Origin: Paraspadella gotoi
Taxonomy: Eukaryota > Animalia > Chaetognatha
Direction of reading: 5' to 3'
Assembly (NCBI GenBank): GCA_051294375.1
Contig: JBJCIZ010000403.1
Span: forward strand, 1 to 13,677
DNA: 13,677 nt
Made by a program: the position numbers and the translations under genes. The notes under the pieces are model-generated. The model saw nothing but the letters and a program-made list of their open reading frames with translations. It was not told where the DNA came from and searched no databases. Below are positions 1,306 through 13,677 of this stretch, piece by piece. Each line of letters opens with the position of its first letter. The first letter of the stretch is position 1.

Positions 1306-1380
1306 ACCAGAGTGGCGACATTGGTTGAGGCGCTGCTAGTGAATACAGAGTCCCGAGTTCGAGACGCATGGAGCACTCTT
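1306..1380 (+). repeat. tRNA-derived SINE-like or degenerate tRNA fragment
   Basis: Pol III A box TGGCGACATTGG (1313-1324) and B-box-like GAGTTCGAGAC (1355-1365) at tRNA-like spacing, followed by a T-rich tail. No clean cloverleaf. Confidence 0.5.
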
Positions 1381-2200: not shown

Positions 2201-2594
2201 TATGTTAAGAAAAAATTATATTACTTTATACGTATGAAAAAATAACATTTGTCCTTATGCATATATCCAAGGGGAGACAATCAGCTTTCGAACGCCGTAT
2301 CATTTTATGCAATTAACCATAGTATAAAAATGGCAGTTGGCCAAATAAAAAAATAATTTATTTTAGAGGAGTAAAAGAAAAGTAAAAAGAAAGGAAAGAA
2401 AGTTACGAGTTTTAGCGATCTTTTCTGTGTCAAAAGCCCGCAAGACCATCTACTTATCAGTTAACCTATCAAAATCTAAATCGATGACATGACTTTTTTC
2501 ACTCGATTTTGAAATTTTTTTTTTCCTGGAGGTCTGAGGCACCATGAACCCCTCTCTCGCGCGGATTTCCGAGGTGTTGACAAAATTTTTTTTT

Positions 2595-2722
2595 CTCCTC
2601 CGCCCCCCTCTCCTCCTCCATCTCCTCCCCCCTCCTCCTCGCGAAAAAAAAATTTTTTGGGGGGGAGGAGGAGGAGGGGAAGGGGAGGGAAGAGGGGGGG
2701 AAGGGGAGGGAAGAGAGGGGGA
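2595..2722. repeat. Polypyrimidine / A9T7 / polypurine quasi-palindrome, G-quadruplex/triplex-prone
   Basis: C/T tract 2595-2640, aaaaaaaaattttttt centre at ~2652, G/A tract 2659-2722 with many runs of 3 or more G. Confidence 0.7.
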
Positions 2723-3199
2723 AGATTCTTCTTTCGCGAAGAAGAGGCGGAGGGGAATTGGACGGCGAGTAAGGAGGCGGGGTAAATGCGCGGCAAGAAG
2801 GAGGACTGAAGCTTCCCTCGGTTATTCTCGCTTTTCCTCTCAGCAGTCCCTTCATTCTGCTCATCTCTCGGTCGTCTTCGTCGTCGTCCAAATGTCTCCA
2901 AGAATGATAATAACTAGACGACAAAGAGGACGGTCGCCACCTCCCTTTCTCGGTTATCTCGAGTAGATCGGCCTCGGGATCATAATCTTCTTGAGTGGGC
3001 GCCGGGGGTGCCTCGAGAAATAGGGGAGGAATTTCGGGGGGCGGAGTCGAGATCGACGCCTCGGCCCAGGGACCGCGGTCCTTGGGTAACTCAAAGGGCC
3101 AAGTTCTGCCGGCCGCCGCCGGAGCCGCCATAGTTTCCAAGGAATAGCATTTCGGTTTGAGAGAAACGCATTTGTATAAAAATCCGGCCCCGGACTCGT

Positions 3200-3265
3200 C
3201 TGAGGAGGAGAGAATGAGAGAATGAGAGAGGGAATGAGAGAATGAGAGAGGGACGTTTCGCTCAC
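3200..3265 (-). other. pPolB intron 11 (66 bp, GT-AG), contains a TCTCATTC-type simple repeat
   Basis: AAAG|GTGAGC ... CTCCTCAG|AC. Restores GCLK-DE. Confidence 0.88.
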
Positions 3266-3366
3266 CTTTTAAGCAACCGAGTCTATTCCTATTATGATCC
3301 CTCCACATTTGTAATATAGGTATTCTGTCCTTGTTTTCCAACCAATACGGATGGGTTTCTTCGGGA

Positions 3367-3426
3367 CTATAATTAAGTAATATAAATAATCTAATAATGA
3401 TAATATATTAATCAATTATTATTTAG
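3367..3426 (-). other. pPolB intron 10 (60 bp); donor reads CT
   Basis: GAC TA|CTAAAT ... TTATAG|T CCC. Gives LDVKDYPEETHPYW (cf. FDTSDYPxDHPLY). Confidence 0.7.
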
Positions 3427-3521
3427 TAGTCTTTAACGTCCAAAATGAAACAGAGATTGGCCCAATCGCGCCAAAACGAAGCCAGTCGACTCTTGTATCG
3501 GAAAGCCAAGACGAAGGACTC

Positions 3522-3584
3522 CTAATAATATTATTATAACAATTATTATTTTTTCTTAAATAGAATTAAAATCTTTCGGTTCAC
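3522..3584 (-). other. pPolB intron 9 (63 bp, GT-AG) within motif C
   Basis: GAC ACG|GTGAAC ... TATTAG|GAG TCC TTC. Gives DT|ESFV. Confidence 0.8.
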
Positions 3585-3700
3585 CGTGTCATTTTGTTGC
3601 AGCCTCATGCTCACGTCGGTCCTAGCTTCGTTAAACACTCTTCTTAGATTCATTTGAAAGAATAATATGTTAATAAATTTTGAGTTTTCCAGTATGCATC

Positions 3701-3750
3701 CTTAATTAATTAATTAATTTATTATTAATTCATTATTTTAAAATTCTAAC
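3701..3750 (-). other. pPolB intron 8 (50 bp, GT-AG)
   Basis: GGAG|GTTAGA ... TTAAG|GA. Gives KPIMVG-GCILENSK. Confidence 0.85.
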
Positions 3751-3925
3751 CTCCGACCATTATCGGCTTGTTCAAGACGCAAGCGTTTTTCTCGAATTTT
3801 AACAAGATCAAAGAATCGGAGAGGGTCTCGCAGCTGTGAAAATCGGCGCGATTCATCGCCCGTCTGGCCAATTTTTTGTCGAAATACAAATGGATATTGT
3901 GTTTTCCTCGTATGTTTTTGATGGT

Positions 3926-3994
3926 CTATGTATATATATAAAAAAATATTTGTAACTGAAATATTATATATGATATTACTATAAATCAGTTTAT
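3926..3994 (-). other. pPolB intron 7 (69 bp) just after motif B; donor reads AT
   Basis: GGC AAG|ATAAAC ... CATAG|ACC ATC AAA AAC. Gives YGK-TIKNIR (cf. FGK-TMENVR). Confidence 0.8.
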
Positions 3995-4368
3995 CTTGCC
4001 GTACAAACTGTTTACGATCGTCTTGTAATGATTTTTTAAGAATGGCGACTCGGCCCGGTTTCTTTTTTCTTCCCACGCAAGTAATCAACTTAGGAGTCGA
4101 ATCCCGTAACGTTTCGCGAGCCGTATCGTTCGAGGAGACAGTTGGTTTTTGGGCGCGGTTCTCTTCTCACCGAGGGGGGGGTACGCTCCCAAGGAAGAGT
4201 GTAAATGATCGGGCAAATATATGTCGCACTCCACCATGAACCCCACGTTCGCCTCGTGCATCCAATCCTTGTAACGACCGTCTTTCGTCATGGCCAAAAT
4301 ATCGGCGAGTTGATTACTCGGGATGGTGAAAAAACCTCCTTTCGGTAGAGGGTACGACATCGCTTTAC

Positions 4369-4434
4369 CTATAATAATCAAAAAACGCGGAAATAAGTTA
4401 TGTATTGTTGCGATTATTATATTATTATACTTAA
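4369..4434 (-). other. pPolB intron 6 (66 bp) within motif A; donor defective as sequenced
   Basis: AT-rich in-frame 22-aa interruption between DLY and GKAMS, with TATAG acceptor. Donor reads G|TTAAGT. Confidence 0.8.
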
Positions 4435-5155
4435 CATAGAGATCGGTAAAATCTTGATAAATTAAGTGAGTACTGCCCTCGTCCTTGTAGTCGAAACCCA
4501 CTTGGCCATTGTTCGCTACGGCGTAGCGCTCGGAAACGGCGCATACGCCCCCCGAATCATACGCTCGTAGGTCAAATATTGAAGGGAATCGGCTTCGCCG
4601 AATAATGGAATTTCCACTTTGGTCATTGACAGAAAAATGTCGAGACCGATTCCCGCGAAACCGTAGTAATGGGTCGGCGAAATGCCGTGAAGTTTCACGG
4701 TATTTTCGATGAAATATTCAAAAACGGCTTCCAAGGTCAGGACGTCTATGGTGTTATAAGATAGAATAAACTGTCCAAAGTCGCTAAAGTTAAACATTCG
4801 GTAAATGCCGAACGTTTTTTCGTAATCTTCTCGACTACAAATTTCCTTGGACATGTCGTCCATAAATTCATTGATGGAGGGAAGGTCGGGATCGCTCAAG
4901 CGGTCCAACAAAAATGCCGAATATGGCATTTTTATTTTTTGTAAAATTTTCATGAAATTTTGACCTTTAGCCTCTCCATAGGTTTCCGCGATATATTCGT
5001 ATACCGGTTTGAAAAGTTCTTTCAAAGTTTTAACTTGGGCGCATTCTATGCAAGGGGCTGTGACCACTGGTTTCCGACAACAAACGCCCCCCCTTTTTTC
5101 TCTCGATTCCGTAGTCAGATTATCGATCAGAGCCGCGAGGAAAGAAGACTGAAAC

Positions 5156-5230
5156 CTGGGGTGGGGGCGGGAGGGAGAGAGATAATCGAGTTAATTTAGT
5201 TTTATACTATTCGTTAATTTAATAAAATAC
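5156..5230 (-). other. pPolB intron 5 (75 bp, GT-AG)
   Basis: ACAG|GTATTT ... CCCCCAG|G. Gives TYR|FQSSFLAALIDNL (cf. RFMxxSLxxLvxNL), in frame with ORF 4516-5067. Confidence 0.85.
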
Positions 5231-5486
5231 CTGTAAGTACATTTCACTCTGATTGTACTAATTTTGGAACATTGACAGGTCAATCCCTCATCTTCCTCTC
5301 GATCTCTGACGATCCATTCGGAGAGATCTCCGACTTGCTCGTCGGAAAAAGTAATCGTGATTCTTGTTCGCTACGAATTCGAATTCGTCTACATCGTCGT
5401 CGAACTGATCCTCGTCGTCATTATCATCATCGTCGTCGTCGTCGTACTCTTTCTCGGCCTTTGTTTTGCAAAAATCGCAGTTAAAC

Positions 5487-5559
5487 CTCGAGAGAGAGGG
5501 GGGAGGGGGAAAGATAAAAGGCCATCGAAACGCGCCATCGTGTGGAGGAAAAAAATCAC
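5487..5559 (-). other. pPolB intron 4 (73 bp, GT-AG)
   Basis: AG|GTGATT donor, pyrimidine tract, atypical GAG acceptor. Frame continues FDIR|FNCDFC. Confidence 0.7.
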
Positions 5560-5739
5560 CTTATGTCGAAGGAGATAAATTTCTTCATCGAAGATTCCGT
5601 CAGAATATTGGTGACGGACTTGACGTTAAAGTTGCTGTTACGATCTTTTAAACCGTGAAAGATTGCCGCGGCGTTGAAATTCATGTTATGAAACAGGAGC
5701 AACACTTGTAATCTTACGGTATATTTCGCGTTGCAAGAT

Positions 5740-6409
5740 CTTTTAATAAGAAGGAAAAAAAAGAAAAAGGGACTCTTGTTTTTTCAAAGGTGAATTTCAC
5801 TCACTCGCTAACCTGCACATTAAGGCGTAGTGAAAGTTAAATACGAAAATTCTAAATGTCAATTATGAACAACATACCATCAGTGAACATTAATTTGTAA
5901 AAAAAAATAATTTTATGTTTTTAATTTTCGCAGTAGGCCATATTTATATATAGTATTATCCTTATTAAATCGAAAAATTTCAAAATAGGCTTTTCTTAAT
6001 TTTGAATGCAGATTTGAATTCCTTGTCAAAAGTTGATAAAAGAAAATATAAATCATTTTAAAATTCTTTCATTAAGTGGGTTAAAAATTAAAAAAACTAT
6101 ATTTAATATATAAAAGTTAATTTTCAGCTTAAAATATAGTTTTTCTAATTTTGACCCACCTAATGAAGGATTTTTCAAAAAGAGTTATATTTCTTTTATC
6201 AACTTTTATAACGAATCCAAATCTGCAAAAAAATCTTAGAAAAAATGTTTTGAAATTTTACATTTATTGGTTAGTACTAGTATAAATATGCCTACTGCGT
6301 AAATTGACAAATTTATTATAAATTGTTTTATTACATAAATGTTGATTAGATAATATTGTTCGTTCTCACTTTAGAATTTTAATTAAAGTTAAATTGTTAC
6401 TCGCTTAAC
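5740..6409 (-). other. pPolB intron 3 (670 bp; inferred ancestral 73 bp plus insertion)
   Basis: TGCAG|GTTAAG ... TTAAAAG|ATCTTGCAAC. A second donor copy lies at 5812. Confidence 0.85.
5821..6398. mobile_element. Foldback/MITE-like AT-rich imperfect palindrome inserted in intron 3
   Basis: The arms are reverse complements centred at ~6120: aaaattctaaa/tttagaatttt, cgcagtaggc/gcctactgcg, gcagatttg/caaatctgc, aaaagttgataaaagaaa/tttcttttatcaactttt. Flanked by direct repeats at 5803-5820 and 6399-6417. Confidence 0.85.
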
Positions 6410-6733
6410 CTGCACATGGTTGCCCTATAATTCCCAGTACGCCAACAATGATCCAGCACGCGATGGTTGGTACTCTCGTCGTTGAGAACCTCGTGACAAC
6501 AGTCGCAATGAGTGGCTTCGGTGTGCCTCTTCAACTCTTCGTCGGTCAAAATTGGGGGATCCGGAAATAAATGGAGCAGACCGTACAAAAGCTTAGCGTC
6601 GTCTCTCAAGGAGGCGATGAATAGCTTGGCGCAATCGGACCGATAAAAGATCTCGGAAGAAAAGGTCTTCGGAGAACTCGCTGTGAACTTTGTAGCAATA
6701 CGAAGCGGACATATCTCGCTGGTAAATTCCAAG

Positions 6734-7383
6734 GACGCGCGATTCTCCAACACGGTTTAAAGCGGTGCAAACTTGACAATTTGTCACGTGTTCAAGATGT
6801 AAGTCAGTCTTGACCCAAGGATAAATGGGATCATCTTCTTCGGTCAAAGGTTGTTGACATCCGGGACGCCGTTCGACCTCTGGCGCCGCTTTGGCATAGG
6901 TCTCAAAATCCGCGTATATCACGTACGGGTGTCGTAACGAGTAATGATGATGTTTAAACTTCATCACGGACCCGGGTTGAGGATATTTGACCACCTGCGT
7001 TTGTCGAAGAACGCAAATTCGAAATGGACAAAGAAGGTAGACTCTTGACTCGTGGATGACCGCTGCGATTTCCAACACGGTTTCAAAGCGTGCAAACTTG
7101 ACAATTTGTCACGTGTTCAAGATGTAAGTCAGTCTTGACCCAAGGATAAATGGGATCATCTTCTTCGGTCAAAGGTTGTTGACATCCGGGACGCCGTTTC
7201 GACCTCTGGCGCCGCTTTGGCATAGGTCTCAAATCCGCGTATATCACGTACGGGTGTCGTAACGAGTAATGATGATGTTTTTAAACTTCATCACGGACCC
7301 GGGTTGAGGATATTTGACCACCTGCGTTTGTCGAAGAACGCAAATTCGAAAATGGAGCAAAGAAGGAACTCTCGACTCGTGGA
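6734..7383. repeat. Tandem direct duplication, ~325-bp unit (6734-7056 and 7058-7383), of the ExoI-coding segment
   Basis: Near-identical copies differing mostly by small indels. Confidence 0.95.
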
Positions 7384-7393
7384 GTAAAGACAT

Positions 7394-7468
7394 CTAGGAT
7401 AGGTGGGTGGGGGGGGGTTAAGTGAGAAAGGAAGAAAAAGAAGAAGAAAAAGAATAAAAGACACTTGC
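7394..7468 (-). other. pPolB intron 2 (75 bp, GC-AG)
   Basis: AG|GCAAGT donor, CCTAG acceptor. Joins C-P-R|C-L-Y (CxxC). Confidence 0.75.
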
Positions 7469-8049
7469 CTAGGACAAAACGTGTTTTGTTCTTTTGTAAG
7501 ATGAACCTTGTTTTCCGAGAAGACGAGACAGAGTTAATAGTACAAAAGTGGGATGACTTTTTGTTGTATAATTTTAACAAATTTACAACCTTAACGTTTC
7601 GAATTCAGTAGTTCCGTTTCGGTCCGATACGTAAAGGGAAAAAAGAATGCTCTTTATCTTTCCCCTATCGTTCATCTTGCGCACGTAAGAGTACGCGTTT
7701 ATCGCGAGCGAGGGGTTCAGGGCTTTGATCTTTTTTAGATCCGATATCGAAACGGGGCAACTCTTCAAGAGGTCGCCGAAATTAATCTCTCGCGAGTGCT
7801 TGAGATATTTACCCGGCCTCAATTTGGAATCGTCGATCTCCGGATGAAGCCCCGCTAATAGCGAAATCAGTAAACAGTTCTGATCTCTCGATTACACGTT
7901 CGTGACTGCTTTTTTCCGATTAATGAAATCGGGAGTCTTAATGAACGAGCCGATGACTTTTTTGGACCGCAGATTGTAAAAGAAAGAAGGAAGAATGCGG
8001 ATAAAAGTCAAATCCGCCTGGCTCACGTTTTGAAATATAAGAAAGCTTC

Positions 8050-8138
8050 CTGATAATAAAAAAAAAAGAGAAAAAGAGGGAAAAAATGTAAAATAAAAAT
8101 ATTCGTGAGTAACTAAAAATGAAGAAGAGAAAAAATAC
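8050..8138 (-). other. pPolB intron 1 (89 bp, GT-AG)
   Basis: TCAG|GTATTT ... poly-T TATCAG|GA. Restores ESG-SFLIFQNV in frame. Confidence 0.85.
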
Positions 8139-9229
8139 CTGATTCCAATTTGTTTTCGATTTGCAAGGAAAACAGGCCCGTGATATGATCCAAAACCCCA
8201 TCCAAATCCGTCCCCAGGTTGATGAGCTCCGATTTGTGGTCGTAATAAAATTGCACGGTTTCATCGTGGTCCGGACGGAGGTAGGTGACCAAGATGCAAA
8301 CGTGAATTTTTACAACCGGAACCCGCTTCAACGTTCCCTTGATGAATTTTTTTAATTGTTTCTGCAGACGAGAGAGCGCCGTTCTGTAGTCGGCCAGCTC
8401 CAAGGTTGGCACGAGTCTGACCGTTTTAACGACATTGCAATATTTGCGGCATCCCCCTGGACTGATGCGATACATGTCCCCATCATCAGCCGGCGCGGAA
8501 TCGTCATTATCCTCTTTTTCTTTTTCCTCCGTCAACGCTATCTTTTCCTTGGTGATCGACTTCTGCGAACGCAAAATCGATTGACCGAGGTCCGACCCGG
8601 TTTACGCCAACGCTTCTTGATCGTCATCGTCGTCGCGTCGTCGTCATCATCGTCCCCAGACCAAGGGAGCCCTTTTTCCCGGCGAGTCATCGTCGTCCTC
8701 TCTTTTCCTTTTCCCTCCTCCCAACCTGAGGTCCTCGTTCCTCAAAAAGATCGACTGCCAACAGGGAAGTTGATCGTCGTCGACGGGGGGGTCCGTTGTC
8801 GTTGTTGTCTGTTTGACGGAACGGCCGGCTGTTGCTGCTGCCTCCTCCTCCAACAACTTCAAACAGTTCCCGGTTCGCGAACGAAAGGAATCGGCGAGTA
8901 GTCGCGAGGAGGGAGTCCGTTAGAAACAAGGAAAGTTCGCTTTCGTATCTCCTCTCACTCGATTCGTCTAACTCTTTGTCATCGTTAAAAGAAGCCATCT
9001 GTTTGATTTTTAAAAAATATTTATTTAACATTTTTTCAACAAGTCAAACATCATTTCGCCGTTTAAACAAAATTTTATCGAGTCCATTTCATTAGCGCCT
9101 CTAAAGTTATTCTCTAAATGATATTTATAATAGTCATAAAATTTAGTCGAAATTATTTTATTACAGTCGTATAACGATTCTCTAATAATGGGTAAAAATA
9201 GGCTACATGAGGATATAATATTTTTATTA

Positions 9230-9734: not shown

Positions 9735-10517
9735 TTAAATAATCATACGATTGTTTACTAAATTTTCATAGGTTGATTTAAGAAATATGGCGCATCTATG
9801 ATTGCAAGAACATTGCGGCGGACTACAAGATTCGACGGCGATGTTCATTTGTACATCAGAGTCTCCCAACACCTTTTCTATGCATTGTCGCCATCTATCA
9901 AAATTTTCCCCTAAATTTTCTACGTTAAATTTATGGAAAAATGACCGGTAACTTAAAAAATTGATCAGAAAATCTTCCCTTTCTTCCCAATTGCTAAACT
10001 CTATACATTTTAAAATTTTATAACATATCGTATATGTTTCAAAAATATCTCGCAAAGAATGTAAATATTGTCCTATTTCACAAATTAAGTTACAAATTCC
10101 ATTCTTACTGTGCTGATTACCTTCGACGTGTAAATATTCGATTGAAAAAGACATAAATTTTAAAGGATTTAGTACTAATTTTTTAAAGAAGGAAAAGTTA
10201 GTTTTTAGCTGGGCGATATCCGGATTTGGAAGCTCGTGGTCAAAAAGGAAAAGTTTTTGTCTGTATACGCTCAAGTCCGGATCGTTCTCGGCATCTACCG
10301 CGGAAGCTATTTCTTCCCGACTCCCGTGAAACCTCGAGACGATGATGGAGATGGTGTGGTCCACCACTCGGTATTCGCGATGAAACAGATGGTGAGTTTC
10401 CATCAAGACTCGAAGCATGAACGTCAGCTTCTGCAAAAAACTCGATCGATGGGCCACGTCAACCACCGTTGGAATGGGATCTACCGCAAATTGTTCCATC
10501 TCCATCATCTCCGCCAT
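9735..10517 (-). CDS. Hypothetical 260-aa protein, intact and intronless
   Basis: Long ATG-initiated ORF in AT-rich DNA, co-oriented with pPolB. C-terminal C..CSC.H.C cluster. No family recognised. Confidence 0.75.
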   Translation of the reverse strand: MAEMMEMEQFAVDPIPTVVDVAHRSSFLQKLTFMLRVLMETHHLFHREYRVVDHTISIIVSRFHGSREEIASAVDAENDPDLSVYRQKLFLFDHELPNPDIAQLKTNFSFFKKLVLNPLKFMSFSIEYLHVEGNQHSKNGICNLICEIGQYLHSLRDIFETYTICYKILKCIEFSNWEEREDFLINFLSYRSFFHKFNVENLGENFDRWRQCIEKVLGDSDVQMNIAVESCSPPQCSCNHRCAIFLKSTYENLVNNRMII

Positions 10518-10615: not shown

Positions 10616-11195
10616 CTAATTGTCTTTTTTAGCCCTCTTATTCGTGCCCACGTCGTAATCGTCCTCATCATCGTCGTCCTCCTCGTCGCGACAACGCGAC
10701 TTCTCCTCTTTCACGAAATCCATCAGCGACTGGAATTCCACGAGGGAAAGATAAATGGTTCCCAGATTTATCATCACCGTCTTGGTTTGACCAGTTGCGG
10801 CGGTAAAATGGTACAAACTTTAGAAAAAATATATAATTTATATTAATTTTTTTATCAAGATAAACTGATAAATGACAAAAATAAAAAATAAAAAGTACCG
10901 CTTGAATGGAGGTCCTGGCGAGCGGAGACACTTGATTCCTATTGGAAAGCGCCAGCGATAGCGAACGAGAGATAAAGATCCGATCACCGGTTACATTATT
11001 GTACCCAGATGTCTCGCAAGTACTATATATATATAAATAATTTTTTATTTTATAAATTTTCCTTTTGTTAAAACCGCAAAATGAAAAATTCACCTCTGGA
11101 AATGGTCAATGTCCTGGGTACCGTAGCGATTGACTCTACTAAGTGCGTAGTAAAATATTCTGCTCCAGGGTTTATAACTTTATGTACAAAATCTT
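10616..11195 (-). pseudogene. Multi-exon hypothetical gene with acidic and NLS-like C-terminus (5' end unresolved)
   Basis: Exons 11195-11094, 11022-10899 and 10817-10616 joined by GT-AG introns 11023-11093 (71 bp) and 10818-10898 (81 bp) keep one frame ending DEEDDDDEDDYDVGTNKRAKKDN. One TAA at 10991-10993. Confidence 0.6.
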
Positions 11196-11456
11196 CTATA
11201 AGAGTGTGGCAGGATCATAAAACATTCAAACGAACAAACATATACTTTCCATAATTACGCGTATGGGTTATAAAAAAGAATTTATAATACACATTTTTAC
11301 AATTATAACACGCTCTCCGTTTAGTGCCATATTTATACTACGTTACTCTACTTATGTCATAAACCAATCAACTCTCTAAATATCAAAGATCAGTGGTTCT
11401 CTTTTCTGTGCATACATATATATTTGCTTGCAGCGATTTGTGTGGCTGTTCCTCAT

Positions 11457-11600
11457 AAAAAGTTGATAAATAAGTAAATATAACTCTTTTTGGAAACACA
11501 TTCCATTCCATTAAGTGGGTCAAAAATTATAAAAAAGCCTTCATTTAAAACTTGAAATTAAACTCTTTTAAGTGTGTATAAATATAGTTTTTTTTTGAAT
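11457..11600. repeat. Fragment of the same foldback family as 5821-6398
   Basis: aaaagttgataaa...aatataactctttttg...cattaagtgggtcaaaaatta...aaatatagtttttt matches the central part of the intron-3 palindrome. Confidence 0.75.
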
Positions 11601-12539
11601 GTTTATAGAGCATCGGCCAGCTCTGGAAAGGCCACACTTTTAAAAATGATTTACTATTTGGTGATTTAGTGCTACAACTTTATGACGAGGAATCTCAAAT
11701 TGCAATCTCCATAATTAAGAGAACAGCCTATTGTTTTAAATTCTGTTTTGATTTCGTAATAAGAGTATGATTAACCATAATATATTAAATATAGCCTACA
11801 TAAGAAATTAAATTTTTTTACAAATTAATCATGTTCACATAGCATGGATTTAAGACATGCGTATGTTTGTTTGTCATGAACATTGAACTTTTGTAACTTT
11901 TCCATAACTGCTTAACTTTCACGTAATCTGACCTTATTGCTCTAGTCCAACTGCTTTCGACTGAACAGGCTACTAAAGCGTTCCTAGCTTCTTCGAAGTA
12001 AGGCTTCCGAGCTCCTATAGGCAGACATGACGCTAGAGAAGTACACCTATCGAACTTGAGCGAATGAGACCGCAGCCGGAATTCCAGCCCGAAGGCAAAA
12101 GAAAGAGGTCGTAAGTCCTTTCTCCACTAGGTGTCTTTATGCACAACGTGGCAGCTGGCGGCTTTCACGGCGAGCCACGATTACGGTGAAAACGTGAAGG
12201 AAGAACATACGGGGAATCGTTGATAGATCATGGAACTGGAGTGAGTGGCATAAAATGAAAGCGTAGAAAATTGATTGTCATTCATACTATCATCTTAGCT
12301 CGCCGATTCATTCATTCAATTCAATATCTTATAGATCAGAGGTACTCTCTGGTTTTGACGCTCGGGTTATCAGAAGTGATGATTGCTGATCTATGTCTTT
12401 TTGGGCTCAGCCTTAATGGCTTCCAAGGACAAACTAATTAAAAAATACACTAAATATGTAATATATTAAAGTCTACGATGTCATCGATGTAATGAAGAGA
12501 AAAAAATGGAATAAGGACAATTTTACTATTTTTACTTAC

Positions 12540-12979
12540 TGAACTTCTTCATTTCTATCCACCGCGGTTCCCTCCAGCCGCCCCTTAGTGCGAAAAATGT
12601 GCCATTCTCTTTCTTTTTTACCGATGTTCGGCGCAAGTGTTTCACCTTTTTTCTACAAAAAACGAAAAAAAATTAAATTAAGTTCCGCGTATATATAATA
12701 TATTCAAAATTACCTTAAATTTAAATTTTTTTTTTTTAAAGAATTAATGACATCAATTAATTGAACGAGTTCAACGTCTCTCGTCGTACGATTAATTTTA
12801 TTTTCTTTACACCCTTGGCAAAGGTAAATAAATTAGTCCTTACAAGTTGGACATACAGCGTTATCTTTATCATTATTAATAATTTTTCGTAGCAAAAAAT
12901 ACAAGTTGGATGGCCTCCCGCAATGGTGCGCCGTTGGCGAAAAAAATCTTCCGTAACAGACTGGACAACGCATAGACAT
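12540..12979 (-). pseudogene. C3HC4 RING-finger protein (putative E3 ligase), spliced and disrupted
   Basis: MSMRCPVCYGRFFSPTAHHCG / GHPTCIFCYEK / IINNDKDNAVCPTCKD via compensating +1/-1 shifts. TAA at 12833-12835. GT-AG intron 12653-12713 in frame to KKGETLAPNIG. Further GTAAGT donor at 12539. Confidence 0.7.
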
Positions 12980-13124
12980 ACTGTCGGGTCTGTAAAATAG
13001 GTGGAAAAAAAGGTCTTATTTATACCCATACTGAAAAGCACTTGAAATGTCAAAAGTAAGAATAAGTGGCTCGGTTTTGTGATTACACAGTGTGTATTTT
13101 TATTTTTTCCTCTACTCTCTATTA

Positions 13125-13677
13125 TTCAAACAAATCTTTGGCTACGTTCCGCTGGCCTTATCGGTTCTTTTTAAAGAAATCAGTCTCGATCCAAAATCGA
13201 TGTTGTAATAACGGCTAAAAAATGTAAACTGTCCTTACAACCTCGTTAATCTTTTACTTACTGTTAAAAGATGTTTTTTGCGTGGTGGAACCCGATCAGG
13301 TAAACGCGTTAGTAATACTTTATTTTATTAAAATATTGTTTAAATAATAAAAAAAAAACCCATTAAGATACTTACTGTAAAACCGAAAGGGTCAATGGTG
13401 AAGAAAACGCGTCCCCCTTTCTGGTGGACGAAAAAGTCAATGACGATAGTTAGGACGACGACGGTTTCCATCACGACACCACCATGAAGCACGGATCAAA
13501 CGATATCAGAAATAAGTTCAACCACGAGCGAGATGAAAACGAAAGAAGTGAGCGAGACGAACAAAAGGACGATGACGACCAAGGAGGTAACTGCAACGAC
13601 CCACGGGCGAGTAGAGACGACTGGGGATTGGCGAACGACCCACGGGCGAGTGGAGACGACTGGGGATTGGCGAACGA
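13125..13677 (+). pseudogene. Possible acidic low-complexity protein with 13-aa repeats, truncated by the window
   Basis: One frame across putative intron 13300-13367 gives ...CFLRGGTRS|DTYCKTERVNGEE...DEQKDDDDQGGNC(NDPRASxDDWGLA)2. Stops at 13206-13211 and 13451-13453. The acceptor lacks a pyrimidine tract. Confidence 0.4.
13595..13677 (+). repeat. 39-bp tandem repeat (2 units plus a partial third)
   Basis: aacgacccacgggcgagt(a/g)gagacgactggggattggcg at 13595 and 13634; third unit starts at 13673. Confidence 0.95.

Follow-up and report, generated by a model that had tools for sequence, protein, structure and literature searches.

Polinton-type elements copy themselves from DNA to DNA, without a reverse-transcribed step. 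In the passages of the literature drawn on here, no introns are reported for intact vertebrate Mavericks (PMC8097293), and a nematode Maverick is described as having intronless core genes next to intron-bearing cargo, wasp and krma (bioRxiv 2022.07.12.499685). This intronless condition was not found in the gene described below, which lies on the minus strand of a 13,677-nt contig of Paraspadella gotoi (JBJCIZ010000403.1, assembly GCA_051294375.1; this whole stretch is called the window). The gene is predicted to encode a protein-primed DNA polymerase (pPolB) of Polinton/adintovirus type, and we consider it probable that it is a decayed copy with 11 likely spliceosomal introns, belonging to a multi-copy mobile family that would need the host spliceosome.

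Like the window gene, wasp and krma bear introns, but they are cargo captured by a Maverick, whereas here it is the core replicase that is split. Spliceosomal-type introns within Polinton-like elements are also described, in parts of PMC12166617, for dinoflagellate eupolintoviral elements, which carry introners, about 25% of them in coding regions. Those introners form transposon families, whereas the 11 stretches of the window share low-complexity tracts only and all lie in the polymerase gene. An introner origin was rejected for them, as their pairwise local scores (16-35) were put down to pyrimidine- or AT-rich tracts and no terminal inverted repeats were found. Passages of PMC12721341 state that no GT-AG sites were found in Oxyrrhis elements, and the main text of PMC8502044 contains no word beginning with 'splic'. 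The portions used of bioRxiv 2023.08.22.554363, PMC12220804, 10.64898/2026.07.28.741278 and 10.64898/2026.10.13.758929 add nothing on spliceosomal introns in pPolB. No description of an intron-rich animal Polinton polymerase was found in titles and keyword passages of the literature, and supplements or Repbase-type annotations may list such genes. The novelty is one of degree, since dinoflagellate polinton-like introners are already in print.

Homology of the polymerase gene

The analysis drew on the window sequence, on 150 homologues and on contigs assembled from public sequencing runs. The homologues were the best 150 of 1054 proteins matching exon 6 (cf. Table 1 for exon and intron numbering) at E ≤ 0.001 and are 25-37% identical to it. 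A main profile of 1178 columns was built from the 32 hits of at least 1000 amino acids and searched against all 674 stop-to-stop pieces of the window, and a C-terminal profile of 220 columns was derived from 41 proteins. Nine public runs from three studies contain 28-36% of sampled window words; contigs of six runs (five samples, three studies) and of one run of another organism were aligned to the window, and single runs are designated below by X numbers. The comparison of copies rests on these contigs, X8 and X10 being only guessed to be RNA; none of the runs listed as RNA was found to contain the stretch. A form about 96-97% identical to the window, seen in contigs of six runs, is referred to as the main form.

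The main profile gave 17 matches in the window, 15 of which fall within 8502-3126 of the minus strand and follow one another in column order (columns 18-1079 of 1178), while the remaining two score below 2 bits. Columns 317-368 were matched twice, owing to a tandem duplication in exon 3. Read through with an X at each break, the stitched protein follows the pPolB profile in order and reaches 393 bits, as was expected by the original prediction, an earlier reading of this sequence that had proposed a Polinton-type pPolB broken by 11 short introns. Its statement that no single open reading frame (ORF) shows the gene was likewise confirmed, in that PF03175 gave no match in any single window piece (0 of the 28 ORF pieces scanned with Pfam). 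PF02945 (Endonuclease_7) matched one ORF piece (E 0.005, 17.1 bits, below the 23.6 cut-off); when ten full-length homologues were scanned, PF03175 was found in six and Endonuclease_7 in seven (E < 0.001). Besides this collinearity and score, a structure model of exon 6 (predicted local distance difference test, pLDDT, 77) supports the Polinton-type identity, since it matches a MELD-virus PolB (E 3e-5, template modelling score, TM, 0.69), and it also matches bidna-type pPolBs and the PolB of a Drosophila-associated adintovirus. The acidic residues of Exo I, Exo III and Pol A and the K/N/YGK residues of Pol B are all present. The gene thus resembles Polinton/Maverick pPolBs in domain order, in its Exo I/III and Pol A/B motifs and in the fold of exon 6, and differs from them by the 11 intron-like breaks, by insertions in the exonuclease domain and by its tail. 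The insertion in exon 5 is acidic, flanked by cysteines, about 70 amino acids long and lies outside the homologue profile.

Identity to the 32 full-length homologues nowhere exceeds 28%, and a tree of 33 rows (FastTree) placed the gene among pPolBs on the longest end branch (2.17); no supported group emerged from this phylogeny. Proteins of two insects are among the nearer homologues that could be named (2/10 looked up). There was no genuine match in PDB, either by sequence or by fold, a word-indexed protein search gave no match for exon 6 or exon 7, and no related loci were found in viral or metagenome contigs. Many ORF-called pPolB fragments among the homologues P0001-P0168 stop at columns 703-710, several of them with short hydrophobic tails, and the exon-6 query itself ended near that column; these stops hint at an intron that may be common to other lineages and absent from the P. 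gotoi gene.

Judged by homology and predicted fold, the minus strand from 8998 to about 3120 would encode a Polinton/adintovirus-type pPolB. The proposed extension of the gene to 2499 is uncertain, as polymerase homology ends near 3120 and a low-complexity tail lies beyond. The actual 3' end of the gene may lie in a different frame, as hinted at by a non-significant match (-2.9 bits) at 2584-2483.

Intron-like stretches

The 11 intron-like stretches were recovered at the motifs that the original prediction had named or implied. Ten of them measure 50-89 nt; the eleventh, said to be expanded from about 73 nt, consists of 73 nt plus a 597-nt insertion, which is a fold-back repeat. All 11 end in AG, seven are GT-AG and one is GC-AG, while three (introns 6, 7 and 10) have a non-canonical first dinucleotide; drawn as a 67-nt GT-AG intron, intron 6 puts the frame off by one. 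At most one G occurs in the 22 nt before the AG in 10/11 introns, whereas at most two are found before only 8% of 276 exonic AGs, and the upstream exon ends in AG at eight of the 11. Since the profile columns continue across the gaps (748|749, 914|915, 482|482), the breaks are not a matter of chance.

Junctions scored higher spliced than read through at intron 6 (26.8 versus 2.9 bits), intron 7 (24.5 versus 8.0), intron 8 (31.8 versus 13.8) and intron 11 (20.2 versus 3.8); intron 3 reached 29.3 bits in the spliced form, the only form scored there. Introns 9 and 10 are not significant singly and are backed jointly by the C-terminal profile, to which the spliced exons 8-12 match as one domain of 50.4 bits with intron 9 at motif C, whereas retaining introns 9 and 11 splits this domain into parts of 30.4, -1.8 and 6.7 bits. 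In sum, junction support is strong for five introns, joint for two and weak for three, and comes from splice signals only for one. The possibility that homologues encode intron segments as protein bears on intron 11, which is open in frame; it was rejected as protein since its spliced form outscores the read-through. A homology-blind GT-AG scan gave 17 minus-strand candidates, including six of the 11 introns, and 10 on the plus strand, and is therefore a weak control. By the features of U2-type introns (GT/GC-AG ends, a G-poor 3' tract, restored phase), eight of the 11 are canonical in the window, and as a group they are likely to be introns of the major spliceosome.

A contrary view is that the short stretches are never spliced and are decay insertions in a dead element. 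It would fit the absence of RNA support, the three non-canonical donors of the window copy and the tendency of gene finders to label decay insertions as introns in vertebrate Mavericks (passages of PMC8097293). However, AG ends in 11/11, GT/GC donors in 8/11, the narrow range of sizes, the phase restored by removal and the absence of two of the three odd donors from the main form make this view very improbable.

Lesions and related copies

Removal of the introns alone leaves the window copy without an open frame: exons 1 and 2 contain stops and frame changes, and further frame changes occur in exon 3 and near 5340, 4547 and 4093. Thus, of the proposal that 11 introns rebuild pPolB, register and collinearity stood, but an open frame was not obtained, as stops, frameshifts, a duplication, a deletion and odd donors remain. 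The deletion of about 130 nt near 4067 is real, because a 192-nt contig of X3 is identical to the window across it. The two units of the 325-nt duplication differ by one substitution and 11 gaps; bridging contigs of X5 and X8 lack the duplication, which may therefore have been produced by the assembly, as may some single-base frameshifts. The Exo II acidic residue is missing in the window copy. Since main form and window disagree at the first base of intron 10 (6/6 runs), at the first base of intron 7 (place 3994; all three covering runs, in one comparison set of two) and at the Exo II codon (place 5675; 4/4 runs of one comparison set), these oddities are best regarded as lesions of the window copy. 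That non-canonical splicing characterises the lineage was rejected on the same ground, two of the three odd donors being absent from the main form. Eleven of 21 places lie in a TG/CA context compared with 15% of all T/A, a weak contrast as evidence of CpG decay, since a CpG-rich region calls for a higher background. By its sequence, the window copy is to be taken as a dead, decayed copy of a polymerase gene.

The suggested search for other copies returned at least two further forms from the public runs. The main form crosses most introns as DNA in contigs of X5 and X8, does not have the deletion of about 130 nt and, in X5 and X8, lacks the duplication; contigs of X1, X5 and X8 skip the fold-back insert. 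Over 4436-4930, a third form shares about 84% identity with the window. One matching record of 84 nt came from X10, the run of the other organism. Between the window copy and the main form the interior of intron 2 differs. On either side of about 2545 (region 2402-2547), other sequence is present in contigs of X6 and X8, so that the 3' end varies between copies, while 2402-2543 is well conserved and occurs in X5 at main-form depth.

In X3, main-form contigs had a depth of 411-456, compared with 41-44 for the divergent form and 40 for the contig that is identical to the window across the deletion. The main form and the low-depth form had depths of 92-151 and 12 in X6, 2570-3531 and 214 in X2, and 13-27 and 11-12 in X8, so that the ratio was about 10 in X3, 8-13 in X6, 12-16 in X2 and 1-2 in X8. 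These values hint at a copy number of about 1-15 that differs between samples, although the tool itself warns that contig depth measures it poorly, and the window may stem from one of the runs.

The forms and their depths bear on the choice, set out by the original prediction, between an intronised mobile element and a domesticated pPolB. In the latter case a captured pPolB would have gained its introns at a single locus, its catalytic site perhaps changed and its low-complexity tail new, and the window would hold a null allele or paralogue. The many introns and the long end branch are compatible with such a history, and so are the altered motif C and unmatched thumb of the window copy and the mere 1-2 fold depth ratio in X8. 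However, three forms were found, the contig depth of the main form was about tenfold higher in X2, X3 and X6, the neighbouring genes also bear intron-like stretches and have no host homologue that could be found, and the window copy is decayed, which makes domestication unlikely. As there are at least three sequence forms, a roughly tenfold depth contrast and a decayed window copy, the sequence data favor a mobile intron-bearing family over a domesticated single gene; viral genes that would accompany it were not recognised in the window.

The same range of ratios (about 1-2 in X8, 8-16 in X2, X3 and X6) could also arise if the main form were a free or reactivated linear virus-like DNA, its load varying by individual, and the window an integrated fossil. 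Variation in the number of integrated copies explains the same depth pattern, as with the 4 versus 44 adintoviruses reported between Amoebidium isolates in passages of PMC11244446, and neither ends nor virion genes were seen, so we hold a free form to be quite unlikely.

Multiplication might also have been passive, an old immobile intron-bearing element having been amplified by tandem or segmental duplication or within another repeat. Main-form contigs that span 2.2-2.3 kb without a break in X5 and X8, as in near-identical arrays, agree with this, and the ends of the element were not seen. Against it stands the pattern of change between the forms. Substitutions were compared at listed places (40/340 and 40/196), with the tail, intronic places and 2477, 5675 and 7046 excluded. 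In exons 7-11, 14 of the 19 listed are at third positions (p 0.0004; the split was chosen after seeing the data). Introns make up 15% of the stretch and hold seven of the 12 indel rows examined, 28 further rows lying outside the count. The excess of third-position changes in the polymerase core and the faster change in introns than in exons suggest that the spliced protein has been under selection since the forms diverged, and passive amplification is accordingly an improbable account.

Several observations weigh against the reading of a spliced polymerase gene in a mobile family: (i) no spliced read or contig was seen among the contigs aligned, and X8, guessed to be RNA, retains introns; (ii) introns 1, 2 and 5, though in register, individually score below zero, and intron 4, unplaced by the profile, has no homology support; (iii) third positions show no excess among the substitutions listed for exon 6 (4/19), account for 18/38 of all listed exonic places (p 0.05) and for 8/23 of the listed differences in the tail; (iv) in the window copy Glu stands at the second acidic position of motif C, a codon that the aligned contigs do not cover, whereas homologues have DTDS (all 27 of the 32 full-length homologues that match the pattern, one match lying outside motif C); (v) the C-terminal profile has no match for the last 88 of its 220 columns; and (vi) capsid, ATPase, protease, integrase and a terminal repeat were not recognised within the window. 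A joint from 3775 to 4434 in X8 (depth 11) was rejected as a splice, as unknown letters lie between and its ends are not GT-AG.

Table 1. Exons, introns and inserted or duplicated segments of the predicted pPolB gene in the window
Feature	Position	Strand	Description
Exon 1	8139..8998	-	ATG at 8998; low-complexity acidic N-terminus, stops and frame changes; pPolB homology from about 8502
Intron 1	8050..8138	-	89 nt, GT-AG; in register, weak junction score; recovered by homology-blind scan
Exon 2	7469..8049	-	In-frame stop 7894-7892; frame changes from about 7620 to 7480
Intron 2	7394..7468	-	75 nt, GC-AG; splits CPR|C; weak score; recovered by blind scan
Exon 3	6410..7393	-	Exo motif I, endonuclease-VII-like insert, tandem duplication; frame change near 6700
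Tandem duplication	6736..7383		325 nt; 315/316 aligned bases identical, 11 gaps; may be assembly artefact
Intron 3	5740..6409	-	670 nt (73 + 597 insertion), GT-AG; splits MCR|SCN; 29.3 bits; recovered by blind scan
Fold-back repeat in intron 3	5809..6405		597 nt, host repeat resembling a miniature inverted-repeat transposable element (MITE); arms match at 206/242 aligned bases
Exon 4	5560..5739	-	Exo motif II region
Intron 4	5487..5559	-	73 nt, GT-AG; weakest homology backing, unplaced by profile
Exon 5	5231..5486	-	Insertion compared with homologues, acidic and with cysteines; frame change near 5340
Intron 5	5156..5230	-	75 nt, GT-AG; weak score; recovered by blind scan; indels relative to main form
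Exon 6	4435..5155	-	Exo motif III to Pol motif A; frame change near 4547
Intron 6	4369..4434	-	66-67 nt; splits motif A (DLY|G); donor ambiguous
Exon 7	3995..4368	-	Reaches motif B; about 130 nt (near 4067) and 10 nt (near 4093) missing relative to main form
Intron 7	3926..3994	-	69 nt; after motif B (YGK|T); odd donor
Exon 8	3751..3925	-	Profile match
Intron 8	3701..3750	-	50 nt, GT-AG; recovered by blind scan
Exon 9	3585..3700	-	Ends within motif C
Intron 9	3522..3584	-	63 nt, GT-AG; splits motif C (DT|ES)
Exon 10	3427..3521	-	C-terminal profile match
Intron 10	3367..3426	-	60 nt; odd donor
Exon 11	3266..3366	-	C-terminal profile match
Intron 11	3200..3265	-	66 nt, GT-AG; open in frame; splits LK|DE; recovered by blind scan
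Exon 12	2499..3199	-	Homology to about 3120, then proline/acidic low-complexity tail

Neighbouring genes and wider meaning

Upstream of the polymerase gene and on the same strand lies a frameshifted ORF region (9720-9025), followed by an intronless ORF of 260 amino acids (9735-10517, minus), for which neither the word-indexed search nor Pfam, PHROGs or the ESM Atlas yielded a homologue. The claim that neighbouring genes carry intron-like stretches of the same size was borne out at sequence level. A small gene at 10620-11200 (minus), PC4-like by eye only and with an acidic tail, has a 71-nt GT-AG stretch of this kind (11093-11023) and a likely second intron near 10899-10819. In another neighbour, a stretch of 58 nt begins at a donor at 13375; the intron-bearing gene remnant at 12500-13480 (minus) shows frame changes and, by eye only, a RING-like Cys/His spacing at about 12975-12840. 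Neither Pfam nor PHROGs gave a name for the neighbouring genes, and the ESM Atlas had no usable match for two of them. No long inverted repeat bounds the polymerase gene within the window, and contigs extend past both ends of the aligned stretch. The fold-back repeat of intron 3 has a very high summed depth in all four runs of one comparison set and a partial relative at 11449-11839. A short stretch at 1310-1376 (plus) resembles, by eye, the head of a tRNA-derived short interspersed nuclear element (SINE), although ARAGORN found no tRNA, and a 39-nt tandem repeat lies in a GC-rich open frame at the window edge (13595-13677).

On the reading of a mobile, intron-bearing family, host RNA polymerase II would transcribe the integrated element, and the major spliceosome would remove its introns. 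As such an element replicates as DNA only, introns once gained would never be purged, every daughter copy would inherit all 11, and they could accumulate in a long-resident lineage. Selection on the spliced protein would have persisted after the forms diverged, and the window copy would later have received a host fold-back repeat in intron 3, lost about 130 coding bases and suffered point lesions. Splicing, mobility and virion formation are what we infer here. It is possible, though doubtful, that Polinton-like viruses of an intron-rich lineage continue to amplify in this host, with a deeply divergent replicase of 12 exons, spliced accessory genes and roughly tenfold differences in dose between individuals.

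Since no single ORF gives a PF03175 match, surveys based on ORFs only would miss intron-split pPolB lineages or dismiss them as decayed; a large endogenous-virus survey, according to passages of bioRxiv 2025.04.19.649669, calls ORFs with no introns considered. Should the main form prove mobile, it would mean that elements with purely DNA-based replication can reach the intron density of host genes and keep moving, and intron gain could be tested in a fast-evolving multi-copy setting by comparing the 96% and 84% forms position by position. A lineage that is still amplifying would, if real, amount to a DNA virus or transposon whose genes are built entirely like those of a host and which splicing could control.

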